This document shows positions 60,422 to 63,933 of a stretch of DNA of 64,000 nt, piece by piece. The stretch lies in sequence record PQ850622.1; one strand, written 5' to 3'. Numbering within the stretch: position 1 is the first letter of the stretch; every line of letters starts with the position of its first letter. This stretch comes from Escherichia phage OliverMaurmann_Bas86. A program made the translations under genes and the position numbers. The notes beneath the pieces were generated by a model. The model was not told the origin of the DNA. It searched no databases and saw only the letters and a list, made by a program, of their open reading frames with translations.

Positions 60422-60669
60422 TAGTTATCCTCGATAGTCAATAACTCTTCCAGCGATAAGCCAGATTTAACCAGCAAATCACGATACTCGTTAGCATCCA
60501 TCGGATCGAGGCCGGACAATTGAGCGATGGTCATGCGTGCACGTAATGAAGGTAAGGAAACTAAAGCACGGATAGGGATCAATACAAGCCCATATTTACC
60601 ACTGATAACTAAATCACCGTGCTGGATGCACATATGAGCATTTACTACGATTGCAAATGATTCATTCAC
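60421..60669 (-). CDS. hypothetical protein (possible tandem paralog)
   Basis: N-terminus MNESFAIVVNAHMCIQHG; ATGA overlap with neighbour. Confidence 0.3.
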   Translation of the reverse strand: MNESFAIVVNAHMCIQHGDLVISGKYGLVLIPIRALVSLPSLRARMTIAQLSGLDPMDANEYRDLLVKSGLSLEELLTIEDN

Positions 60670-61166
60670 TGGATAGCCTCACAATTAGCAAAGTTAATAA
60701 AGGTTGTATAAACTGCTACACCGTCATTGTAAGCAGTGGTAGCGAGTACAGTTTCACTCACATCCCCATAACTAACGAGATTCGTTACGAACTGTAATTT
60801 CTCTTTCTCGACCTTCTGATATAGAGAGTAAGTCACCATATCTTGATCACTATCAGCACGTTTCAATTTAATGACTGACTGAGTGCCAGATTTCTCGCCC
60901 AATGGGGTAAGAGTGACACGCACATTAGCGGTAGTGACTTCATTGAAGTGTACACGCCAGAAGGCATCATTACCATCACTACCAACGTCACGGCAGACCA
61001 TATCAGGAGCATTCTTAAACGTGCTAACAAAGGATTGCAGACCTGTAGGAGCGGATAACGCTTTATCATCTTTAGCCTGAACATTGGTAGCGATAGCACT
61101 AACACCGATAGCTGCAACCAGTGCATAGGACGCTAGATTGATAGCCTGCATTGCTTTGATAGCCAT
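60666..61166 (-). CDS. secreted protein with signal peptide
   Basis: Start at internal ATG 61166 preceded by AGGAGT: MAIKAMQAINLASYALVAAIGVSAIATNVQA (ORF track extends to 61226). Confidence 0.35.
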   Translation of the reverse strand: MAIKAMQAINLASYALVAAIGVSAIATNVQAKDDKALSAPTGLQSFVSTFKNAPDMVCRDVGSDGNDAFWRVHFNEVTTANVRVTLTPLGEKSGTQSVIKLKRADSDQDMVTYSLYQKVEKEKLQFVTNLVSYGDVSETVLATTAYNDGVAVYTTFINFANCEAIQ

Positions 61167-61439
61167 TATTACTACTCCTGATAAATGAAAGATTGTTTGT
61201 CGTGTGTAGTTACTTAGGCTGATCAACCTTCACTACTCACTATCACCGCTAACTACTTTACATCACTGCTTCATTAACGATAATTCAAACTACGATTGCA
61301 ACTATATATTAAAGGAAAAACATGTCAACCACTTATTTTCAAACTATTTCATAAGTCACTGAATATAAAAGGAATTTAATTTACTAAACTTTCTTGTTCA
61401 GAGATACAGCTTACCAAATAGATGTTATTTTATAACACT

Positions 61440-62480
61440 TACAGAACGGGTAGCAGACCAACGGGATAGATAGATGGGTAAGACGTGCCGCATAGGTTAG
61501 CCAATGGGTAAGAAGCCTAACGAGGAAGGGGAAACGGGTAGGATATAATGTAAGTTAGTTACAGGTAACAGGTCAGACCATGCGGTGATAAATTACCAGT
61601 CAAATTCCCTACTCATCAAAAGAAAAAAGAAACGCTGAAAAAGAAAAGAATAAAAGAAAGAATAAAAATAATAACTAAAGTAAACAACTACCAGTCTAAA
61701 CATACATACATCAATAATCCACTCATGAATAATCACATAAGTTATTACATTCAAACTATGGGGGATGGTCATCAATGGTATAGTTTACATAGGTTATCAT
61801 TAATGTTCTTACTATTAATACCGGTTAGTTATAGTCTTCTATTAGTATGCCTGTACAGTGCTAGCCTTTCATCCCTTCTCAATATGAGTAAGAGAAATAC
61901 GGGTGGGAGAATACTGGTTAGATATACATGGGTATTAAATAGATGGCTTATATCAATGGGTAGGGTATTTATGGGTAGGCATACCTCTGATAGCAGGTAG
62001 GGCAAGGATTAGAGCTTAAAGGCTGATTGATTTCCTAAAGGCGATTGCATTCCCTATAACCCTTTTTTAAATGAGGACTCCCCCTTTTACCAAAACACGC
62101 TCGGAGGGGCTAGGTCCACTCGGTCAAATCAGAATTTTAAACTCTTATATATAACTATATGCCCCAACGTTAGTTGTGGATTTAAGAATAAGGAACTATT
62201 TTATGTGGAAGATTAAGTTACTACTTAAGCAATTCAAATGTAATCACGAGTACTATCCAATCCGGATATCAAGAGGTGATGAACGATTACACACTTATTA
62301 CAAGAGTACATGGAGATGTGCAGACTGTGGTAAGGTGAGGAATAGTAAATGGGTGGATAGGCCTTAATGTGAGGTGGACTTTATGGGTATGCCTTTATGA
62401 GATCCCCTTTACATCAGCGTACATGGGTTTATACATGGGTGGGCCTTTAGATGAGTACGCCTTTATGGGTTGATCACTCT
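61440..62480 (+). repeat. iteron-like array of ATGGGT(A/G) / GGGTA(A/G)G repeats flanking an A-rich tract
   Basis: At least ten same-orientation copies read by eye (e.g. near 61476, 61504, 61537, 61926, 61958, 61971, 62383, 62422, 62434, 62466); 61590-61720 is strongly A-rich. Confidence 0.5.
62203..62367 (+). CDS. small zinc-ribbon protein of the same family as the 52480-53018 cluster
   Basis: ATG at 62203 with AAGGAA upstream: MWKIKLLLKQFKCNHEYYP...YYKSTWRCADCGK. Confidence 0.35.
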   Translation: MWKIKLLLKQFKCNHEYYPIRISRGDERLHTYYKSTWRCADCGKVRNSKWVDRP

Positions 62481-62502
62481 CGTTTATCAGAGGAGAACAA
62501 AT

Positions 62503-62751
62503 ATGTTTCTAGACTTTTTATCAGAGGTACTTCCCTACTTCCGCACTGAGAAATGTGCATTTGTATTTGATGAAGGGGAGGAGTCAATGACTTGTTTGGG
62601 TAGATTAGTAGACCTAGACGATGATGAAGATTTTGATGCTACGATGGACATTAGTTCATTGGGCTGGTTGTACATGAGATGCTTTGTAAGTTACAAGGCT
62701 GAAACGTTTAAAGATTATCGCTATAGCGCTGAAGGAGAGAATGATGAATAA
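62503..62751 (+). CDS. hypothetical acidic protein
   Basis: ATG at 62503 preceded by AGGAGAA. Confidence 0.35.
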   Translation: MFLDFLSEVLPYFRTEKCAFVFDEGEESMTCLGRLVDLDDDEDFDATMDISSLGWLYMRCFVSYKAETFKDYRYSAEGENDE

Positions 62752-63400
62752 CAATATGACAGGAACTAATACACTGAATGCAATCTACGAGAACATGGGA
62801 TGTAAAGGCGAGGTTGTTTACAATGGTAATCTCCGTCCTTTATCAGAGGACACTTTCTATCTGAATCGTGTTCATGAAACTACTGGAGGTCAGTCCCGAG
62901 TTGAGATGGCAAAACAATTGGCTCATGGTTCTGTGTATGGTTATGCTCCTTCAACCCGTGAAATATGGGAAGGTTTGATTCCTTGTACAGAAGCTAAAGA
63001 TGTGAAAGATTATTTCACTGTAGCGAAAGAAGTTAAACGTAAGTGTCCGTCCAATTTAGAAGTTGTTCCGTATGTAGCTGACAAACATGCACACCTACCG
63101 GACTATGCCCGTGAGATGATTGAGATGATAGAAGAGGCTGAGTATGAAGCTCTGAATAATTATTTAAATTCAAAAGAGCAATGGTCTCGTAATGTAGTAA
63201 TTGACGAAGAAGGTAATGAAGTTGTAACGTGGGTGCATGTTAGTGAACAAGCTCTGGACCCCGAGCTTGAAGAATACAAAAAATTTTTGGCGTCCTCTTC
63301 TTTTGAGGTAGAGAATGACAAATCTATTCCAGTTAGCTGGGAAGGTGAAACTGTAGCTCTCCAGACTTTGTTCAACCTACACGTAGGTGATGTAGACTAA
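62741..63400 (+). CDS. hypothetical protein
   Basis: 219 aa ORF. Confidence 0.4.
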   Translation: MMNNNMTGTNTLNAIYENMGCKGEVVYNGNLRPLSEDTFYLNRVHETTGGQSRVEMAKQLAHGSVYGYAPSTREIWEGLIPCTEAKDVKDYFTVAKEVKRKCPSNLEVVPYVADKHAHLPDYAREMIEMIEEAEYEALNNYLNSKEQWSRNVVIDEEGNEVVTWVHVSEQALDPELEEYKKFLASSSFEVENDKSIPVSWEGETVALQTLFNLHVGDVD

Positions 63401-63438: not shown

Positions 63439-63465
63439 GTAACGATAATGTAGAAGGAGTATAAG

Positions 63466-63933
63466 ATGTTTGGAGAAAAAGGAGAACTCACGCCTGCACA
63501 GGTAGCTGAGATTACAGGAAGACTGCCCGGAGTAACGGAAGAACTTGAATCCAAGGGCATGGAACCAAGCACAGGGAAGTTCACTAAAGGTAATAAATTT
63601 GGACGTCCCAAAGGTAGTAGAGGTAAATTGACACAGCTCATGCTCGATCGTGTTGCTGCTAGTCACCTGTCTCCCGATGAAGTGTTGATTCAGATTTATG
63701 AAGATCCAAATATTCCACCTGATCTTAGATTCAAGGCTGCAAGTAAAGTCGCTGATCTGGTATATCCTAAGGCAGCTTCTGTTGAGGTTAAGATTGAGGA
63801 AGAGAATGTAATCAATGAAGAGTCACTGAACGCACAGATTCGAGACTTCTTGACTGGTGCACTGAAAGTGGATGTGCTACCTCCAGAGGACTCTGAGGAC
63901 GCTGAAAAGGAGGAGGAAGCGGACGAGAGTTAA
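63466..63933 (+). CDS. putative DNA-binding protein, possibly small terminase subunit
   Basis: 155 aa with KGNKFGRPKGSRGK basic motif and acidic C-terminus; starts a new operon after a terminator. Confidence 0.3.
   Translation: MFGEKGELTPAQVAEITGRLPGVTEELESKGMEPSTGKFTKGNKFGRPKGSRGKLTQLMLDRVAASHLSPDEVLIQIYEDPNIPPDLRFKAASKVADLVYPKAASVEVKIEEENVINEESLNAQIRDFLTGALKVDVLPPEDSEDAEKEEEADES

Follow-up and report, generated by a model that had tools for sequence, protein, structure and literature searches.

Repeats between the divergent gene blocks

We analysed a 64-kb stretch of DNA from Escherichia phage OliverMaurmann_Bas86 (PQ850622.1; "the window" below is this whole stretch of 64,000 nucleotides). 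The phage is a phiEco32-like podophage (Gordonclarkvirinae, Kuravirus/Suseptimavirus), and the top GenBank match over 61200-62760 is 88% identical. The region 61430-62480 contains three arrays of a short repeat, A[TC]GGG[GT], all in one orientation and placed before, within and after a predicted direct terminal repeat (DTR). A first-pass annotation had described the region as non-coding, cis-acting DNA between divergent gene blocks where early promoters would be expected. This description holds, and a sigma70-type early promoter is present on the - strand. The features of the region are as follows.

61301-61328, - strand: sigma70-type early promoter (TTGACA-16-TATAGT) for the leftward early genes, read from 61328 to 61301; outside the arrays
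61446-61539, + strand: array 1, on the right-end unique side; four hexamers, ACGGGT at 61446, ATGGGT at 61474, ATGGGT at 61504 and ACGGGT at 61534; spacing 28, 30 and 30 bp
61617-61684, + strand: A/G-rich polypurine tract (68 bp); GC 0.23-0.25, AT skew up to 0.57
61899-61976, + strand: array 2, within the DTR and 36 bp from its left end; ACGGGT at 61899, ATGGGT at 61928, 61956 and 61971; spacing 29, 28 and 15 bp
62017-62042, - strand: inverted GCCTTTA pair (TAAAGGC at 62017 and 62036), within the DTR
62349-62470, + strand: array 3, in the unique DNA of the left end; GCCTT(T/A)A and A[TC]GGG[GT] combined in composite units; ATGGGT at 62349, 62383, 62423, 62435 and 62465 (spacing 34, 40, 12 and 30 bp); GCCTTWA at 62361, 62391, 62443 and 62459

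The + strand of 61430-62480 has 10 copies of ATGGGT and the - strand has none, where 0.36 are expected by the rate in the rest of the window. The earlier claim of at least ten same-orientation copies is borne out, as is the enrichment over shuffled sequence that was proposed as its check: in 2000 dinucleotide-preserving shuffles of the 1051 bases, ATGGGT occurs on average 0.61 times and at most 4 times. For the wider motif A[TC]GGG[GT], the counts are 14 on the + strand and 0 on the - strand (shuffles 1.97 +/- 1.32, maximum 7). Elsewhere in the window, no 130-bp stretch on either strand has more than two copies. A degenerate ACGGGA is found at 61461 within array 1, and a lone conserved ATGGGG at 61758 lies outside the three arrays.

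The three clusters and the A-rich tract are at the positions first given for them. The second element that had been noticed beside some repeats was found as GCCTT(T/A)A, with 4 direct copies in array 3 and 2 inverted copies within the DTR (0.12 expected). The picture of repeats next to an AT-rich element is correct for array 1, which has the tract beside it, and fails for arrays 2 and 3, which have none. Array 3 sits between a gp1-like gene (62203-62367) and a gp4-like gene (62503-62751).

Predicted genome ends and terminal repeat

Judged by homology, the window is a circularly permuted assembly and the region with the arrays is the concatemer junction. This context was missed in the first-pass annotation: the region is the predicted physical end of the genome, with a 249-bp DTR and one array inside it. 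Many linear GenBank records of relatives start within the arrays region.

61863-62111, no strand: predicted DTR, 249 bp, from homology to phages with known ends
62060-62089, + strand: conserved DTR core CCCTTTTTTAAATGAGGACTCCCCCTTTTA; AATGAGGACTCCCCC is kept in distant relatives

The exact end repeats of phiEco32 (193 bp) and phage NC-B (250 bp) both map to 61863-62111, and the DTR boundaries are alignable in 9 close relatives and in 19 loci. A 193-bp DTR has been established by experiment or reads for phiEco32, SU10 and YF01 (PMC4281155, PMC9965538). SU10 has the same internal repeat as the CCCTTTTTTAAATGAGGACTCCCCCTTTTA core, 21 nt from the end of its DTR (PMC4281155).

With a slash marking the cut, the left boundary reads ...GTGCT/AGCCTTTC, so that the DTR starts with AGCCTTTC, and the right boundary reads ...GGGGCT/AGGTCC. 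Both predicted boundaries fall in the middle of a CTAG (CT/AG; window 61861-61864 and 62110-62113). They are kept in nearly all relatives examined, even beside mosaic flanking DNA; the distant junctions L070 and L071 have no CTAG at the left boundary. The DNA just outside the left DTR boundary is a recombination mosaic among close relatives.

On the genome map, array 1 and the A-rich tract fall at the right end, array 3 at the left end and array 2 within the DTR. Array 1 is 320-420 bp before the DTR, array 2 occupies 36-114 bp from the left cut position, and array 3 is 240-360 bp after the DTR.

The annotated 275-bp terminal "repeat_region" of phage PAS59 (L002, OQ921332) does not match the conserved DTR, which is at 209-457 of that locus; the ends of this record are probably an assembly overlap and not true termini. 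Several other GenBank records of relatives are also permuted or begin at non-terminal positions.

Conservation in related phages

We compared about 30 related junctions from GenBank, IMG/VR and metagenomes (individual loci have L numbers). The set includes 9 close relatives, divergent GenBank and IMG/VR phages, 9 metagenomic contigs, and 6 distant phages that share the SU10-type portal and terminase module. A scan of IMG/VR with the small-terminase-like (TerS-like) protein described below gave 5 loci, and a scan of metagenomes with the DNA pattern gave 42 loci, 9 of them true relatives.

We conclude that the repeats are genuine and that they are conserved cis elements at the ends of the genome. 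All of the roughly 30 junctions have the three-array, single-orientation layout, and the position, orientation and spacing of the arrays are retained across genera whose intergenic DNA is otherwise unalignable. In the close group, identity in the hexamer columns of the DTR is 1.00 vs 0.88 in other DTR columns (p ~0.008); over the whole region it is 0.96 vs 0.86 in other non-coding columns (p ~0.001). The array 1 motif columns are 100% conserved across 9 phages, and this array is at the same location in all relatives examined. The conserved core spans about -3 to +5 from the hexamer start (6-9 bp). In distant relatives, the features that persist best are the first copy in the DTR, (A)AATAAACGGGT, and the array 3 units of GCCTTTA.

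Copy number varies in whole units, with unit insertions and deletions in array 3 among close relatives. Phage TH42 (L019) has a 31-bp insertion in the DTR, near window position ~61926, that is one extra CATGGGTAG unit with its ATGGGT. This insertion shows that arrays expand through whole-unit duplication.

The hexamer type changes as a block. The window group has ATGGGT, phiEco32 and KBNP1711-like phages have ACGGGG, and more distant phages have ACGGGT. In the limited literature searched, we found no paper describing the Kuravirus arrays. An Rfam scan of 61000-62800 at E <= 1 gave no match.

A small-terminase-like protein that covaries with the repeat

The gene for the TerS-like protein starts 1.35 kb past the DTR, and in relatives it is directly upstream of the large terminase gene.

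63466-63933, + strand: small-terminase-like gene, candidate reader of the arrays; profile match and synteny with TerL

By profile match, the predicted product of 63466-63933 is a putative TerS of the PaP3/NV1 type. A profile built from 61 homologs and searched against the PDB matches the small terminases 7joq (E = 0.0035) and 6w7t (PaP3 TerS, E = 0.057), in the oligomerisation core only. Single-sequence searches of Pfam and the PDB with this protein gave nothing significant. Its AlphaFold model has a mean predicted local distance difference test score (pLDDT) of 70.7, and the best Foldseek match is again 6w7t, at a weak E = 1.5. Similarity of such a protein to PaP3 TerS was reported earlier with HHpred (PMC9965538). 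PaP3 TerS itself assembles as a nonamer and recognises specific DNA sequences through its N-terminal helix-turn-helix motifs (PMC7672466).

The TerS-like proteins of the window and phiEco32 are 91% identical. Among 29 variable columns in 17 phages, only 33, 36 and 138 are split perfectly by the hexamer type of the DTR. In 21 close relatives, residues 33 and 36 sort without exception by the DTR hexamer, and 3 of 4 distant relatives are consistent with this, with few independent switches underlying the pattern. The combinations of residues 33/36 and DTR hexamer are as follows.

E/T with ATGGGT: 11 phages, including the distant L065
N/N or N/S with ACGGGG: 10 phages
N/T and D/T with ACGGGT: L066 and L071

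Residues 33, 35 and 36 form a variable triplet in an otherwise invariant segment, GM.P..G(K/R)F.KGNKFGRPKGSRGK, which comes after the predicted helix-turn-helix. Two lineages separate these residues from the rest of the protein. The KBNP1711 lineage has a window-like TerS backbone yet N33/N36 with ACGGGG, and ECBP2 has a phiEco32-like TerS backbone yet E33/T36 with ATGGGT in arrays 2 and 3. In these lineages, the neighbouring variable residues 5, 16, 30 and 40 do not track the motif.

A recognition code may be read from this pattern, in which residue 33 (E vs N/S/D) would read base 2 of the hexamer (T vs C) and residue 36 (T vs N/S) would read base 6 (T vs G). We regard this code as somewhat unlikely.

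Comparison with known systems

We joined the ends of T7 (L073/L074; 160-bp DTR) and found 13 copies of CCTAAAG on one strand and 0 on the other. Their positions relative to the DTR start are about -159 to -70, then +17, +41 and +61 (inside the DTR), and +174 to +340. These T7 repeat arrays are named SRR and SRL; to our knowledge, they have been known for decades and no role has been assigned to them. The T7 record is annotated with the phage promoters phiOL and phiOR near the ends, with phiOR upstream of the right repeat. T7 and the window both have an exact short DTR, a one-orientation motif before, in the left part of and after the DTR, non-coding leader DNA, and early promoters close by; phiOR is comparable with a promoter-like element of the window, TATAATGTA (see below). 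T7 belongs to a different phage family and has a different terminase and motif, where the window has A[TC]GGG[GT] and GCCTTWA. The outer arrays of the window are 240-420 bp from the DTR, whereas those of T7 abut it. The window is also predicted to be cut in CTAG, which differs from T7.

In lambda, the repeated gpNu1 sites of cos, R1-R3, lie on the side of the cut site that faces the terminase genes, and cosQ, upstream of the cut, is for termination. Packaging specificity in lambda and phage 21 co-evolves between the TerS helix-turn-helix and the sites. The lambda R sites are 16 bp long and one is inverted, IHF is involved, and the cohesive ends are 12 nt. Unlike the window, lambda has cohesive ends and no duplicated 249-bp repeat.

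The pac region of SPP1 and SF6 (pacL-pacC-pacR; boxA, boxB, boxC) has sets of direct repeats that flank the cut and overlap promoters near the TerS gene, and a model has been proposed in which DNA is wrapped round a ring of helix-turn-helix motifs (PMC4737164). Direct repeat sets around a cut site are shared with the window. In contrast to it, SPP1 and SF6 are headful packagers that make one imprecise cut.

Salmonella phage 7-11 (L068) was inspected as an analogue, and its left end has no A[TC]GGG[GT] array. The left end includes 1.7 kb of non-coding DNA with repeated TGTGATGTTATA units (840-1110, 940-1340) and 6 copies of CGTGTG, on one strand only. A 2015 study predicted the TGTGATGTTATA units to be promoters (PMC4331800). 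The late-promoter consensus that was mapped in 2022, GTAAtg-16-aCTA, does not fit them (PMC8948821). These repeats may represent another sequence type of end repeat.

Neighbouring genes and promoters

The open reading frame (ORF) at 61725-62000, suspected from the start of being an artefact, has no family match, and in 7 of 8 close relatives early stops or frameshifts interrupt it. The ORF at 62203-62367 is a 54-amino-acid early ORF with a zinc-ribbon-like CxH...CxxC pattern. It is conserved as phiEco32 gp1, and its last codons overlap the first array 3 copy.

61543-61551, + strand: promoter-like TATAATGTA; points to the genome end and fits both the -10 hexamer of sigma70 and the AATGTA core
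61725-62000, + strand: spurious ORF, overlaps array 2; uninterrupted in the window and MLP3 only
63446-63454: gp36-type promoter TAATGTAGA, 12 bp upstream of the TerS-like start codon, after a hairpin and T-run

Relatives and PHROGs label the gp5-like gene at 62741-63400 as "ABC transporter". It is without a Pfam match, and a single-sequence search of the PDB gave no significant match. The N-terminal domain of the protein is hypervariable and in some cases deleted, the C-terminal domain is acidic and conserved (PSxLEVVxYxxxKHxHLPDYARxMIEMIEEAEYE), and the transporter name looks wrong. We also considered the gp5-like protein as the reader of the arrays. This candidate is weakened by the deletion of the N-terminal domain in the homologs P0133, P0134 and P0137 and in L069, which retains full arrays. 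Further, L065 has E33 and the ATGGG type of the window but an unrelated gp5 N-terminal domain.

In SU10 and phiEco32, the early promoter is upstream of the last leftward gene (PMC4281155). A sigma70 scan found no promoter in the conserved block past the DTR. The AATGTA core in TATAATGTA belongs to the promoter consensus of the phage sigma factor gp36 (PMC12276001). Only the last array 1 copy abuts a TAATGTA element, and TATAATGTA(T) is kept 4-5 bp past this copy in L065, L069, L070, L071 and ECBP2. It is absent from phiEco32. The CTGAAAGAAAAGAAA-type polypurine tract is kept in phiEco32 and in distant relatives. Together, TATAATGTA and the tract could be a junction-crossing promoter like phiOR or a transcription-primed origin.

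The TAATGTAGA promoter is the equivalent of P6, the mapped phiEco32 late promoter upstream of gene 6. The TerS-like gene is therefore a late gene, and the ORFs from 62203 to 63400 are of an earlier class. The best gp36-type promoters in the window (63446, 12908, 22836, 22899) have no upstream hexamer, and we rejected the idea that the hexamer is part of the tAATGTAtA gp36 promoter class because these genuine promoters lack it.

What the arrays may do

The reading that we tentatively favour, and to which we give not quite an even chance, is that terminase recognises the arrays in order to cut and duplicate the DTR. It is favoured because of where the arrays stand relative to the predicted cut sites, because residues of the TerS-like protein track the hexamer, and because T7 has the same layout. 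Since T7 is unrelated and its promoters are arranged differently, the arrays appear to serve the junction and not particular promoters.

Late in infection, the genome would be present as head-to-tail concatemers with one 249-bp repeat (61863-62111) per junction. A ring-shaped TerS, with an N-terminal helix-turn-helix followed by a basic arm, would bind the same-oriented A[TC]GGG[GT] copies before, in and after the DTR. Numerous weak, like-oriented contacts would wrap the junction DNA and place the large terminase at both CT/AG boundaries, and the DTR would then be duplicated, as in T7. By analogy with cosQ-cosN-cosB of lambda, arrays 2 and 3, on the side of the terminase genes, may serve initiation and array 1 may serve termination.

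Several observations weigh against a terminase role. The ends of this phage are placed by homology. Arrays 1 and 3 are 240-420 bp from the predicted cut sites, which is unlike the adjacency in T7, and we know of no established function for the T7 junction repeats. In SF6 and SPP1, the pac repeats do not drive binding by the TerS DNA-binding domain; for SF6, they added little to binding by this domain in isolation (PMC4737164). The covariation rests on perhaps 2-4 independent switches. The TerS gene is 1.4 kb from the arrays, and linkage could be a trivial explanation of the pattern. In close relatives, the type of the gp5-like N-terminal domain partitions with the motif equally well. The motif itself is not uniform either: array 3 of ACGGGG-type phages is made of ACGGGT and ATGGGG, and the distant L070 has N/T at residues 33/36 with a mixed DTR. 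In ECBP2 (L013, L022, NC_018859), array 1 is of the ACGGGG type and the other two arrays are of the ATGGGT type; because array 1 differs from them in this phage, its type need not match TerS. ECBP2 is a junction chimera, with a phiEco32-like gp1, a window-like gp5, and a phiEco32-like TerS backbone that has E33/T36.

The first-pass annotation proposed a replication origin or a control region. A control region is correct but vague. A rival reading is transcription control, in which a phage early or middle DNA-binding protein on the hexamers would shut off or activate the end-proximal early promoters. Every array precedes a transcription unit: array 1 is 120-240 bp upstream of the leftward early promoter, its last copy abuts the promoter-like element, and gp1 and gp4 lie downstream of arrays 2 and 3. 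In close relatives, a switch of motif is also accompanied by a change in the type of N-terminal domain of the gp5-like early protein. We nevertheless consider transcription control quite unlikely. The arrays have a single absolute orientation despite the divergent operons that flank them, and the arrangement recurs around the DTR of T7, whose promoters are laid out quite differently. The gp36-type promoters at 63446, 12908, 22836 and 22899 go without the hexamer, L069 has full arrays and no gp5 N-terminal domain, and L065 combines E33 and ATGGG with an unrelated one. In phiEco32, gp36 promoters have been mapped only upstream of genes 6, 13, 26, 40, 58 and 68 (PMC4331800, PMC8948821).

A replication origin could take two forms. 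The hexamers may be iterons for an initiator, beside an A-rich unwinding tract, or the TATAATGTA promoter may fire into the polypurine tract, with the transcript priming DNA synthesis in a T7-like way. Taken together, we judge the two forms improbable. The direct repeats adjoin a 68-bp tract of 23-25% GC, and same-orientation direct repeats beside an AT-rich tract are what the window shares with iteron origins such as lambda ori and plasmid oriV. Iterons are typically 17-22 bp long. The arrays have a conserved core of 6-9 bp and spacings of 28-30, 15, 12, 34 and 40 bp, which do not correspond to the size and phasing of iterons. They are also three separate arrays, one of them in the DTR, and only array 1 neighbours the AT-rich tract; arrays 2 and 3 lack such a neighbour. 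We found no initiator gene adjacent to the arrays, and the flanking ORFs (60666-61166, 62203-62367, 62503-62751, 62741-63400) have no match to a Rep or initiator family in Pfam or PHROGs. The iteron origin of the first-pass annotation has no positive support.

For the transcript-primed form, T7 is the precedent: its origins are phage promoters followed by AT-rich DNA, with phiOL and phiOR near the ends. Distant relatives of the window retain a promoter-like element with a polypurine tract after it, and this pair is the best remaining argument for an origin nearby; against it, phiEco32 is without TATAATGTA. The cumulative GC-skew minimum is at the junction, but the check that had been suggested is uninformative, because skew follows gene orientation and the minimum coincides exactly with the gene-orientation switch. 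An origin of either form accounts neither for the array within the DTR nor for the TerS covariation.

That the arrays are non-functional by-products, slippage or duplication debris in non-coding end DNA, is very improbable: units are duplicated and lost (the TH42 insertion, the array 3 indels) and the DNA beside the DTR is a recombination mosaic, but the hexamer columns are invariant where the spacers have diverged, position, orientation and spacing are kept across genera with unalignable intergenic DNA, and motif variants change together within an array. The probability that remains covers other functions, such as roles in DNA ejection from the leading end.

Possible bearing on packaging in phiEco32-like phages

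If the arrays are terminase recognition elements, they are best filed as junction repeats of the T7 kind and as a site like pac or cosB, found in another phage family, with a lead on TerS-to-site specificity as the addition. How terminases of phages with a short DTR locate the junction and make two precise cuts at a fixed distance is poorly understood. Kuravirus phages vary naturally, with three types of hexamer, two residues that are candidates for specificity, and chimeras, ECBP2 among them; this variation makes the TerS-site question directly testable.

Known ends and packaging signals would help the assembly and annotation of therapeutic-candidate coliphages, for which many GenBank records are permuted or have spurious ORFs in this region. 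They would also aid engineering and the prediction of cross-packaging between co-infecting relatives. If the recognition code is true, phiEco32-like phages would split into packaging groups (ATGGGT, ACGGGG, ACGGGT) that are unable to cross-package concatemers, and the code would be the first functional account of the one-orientation repeats that flank short terminal repeats in T7-like genomes.

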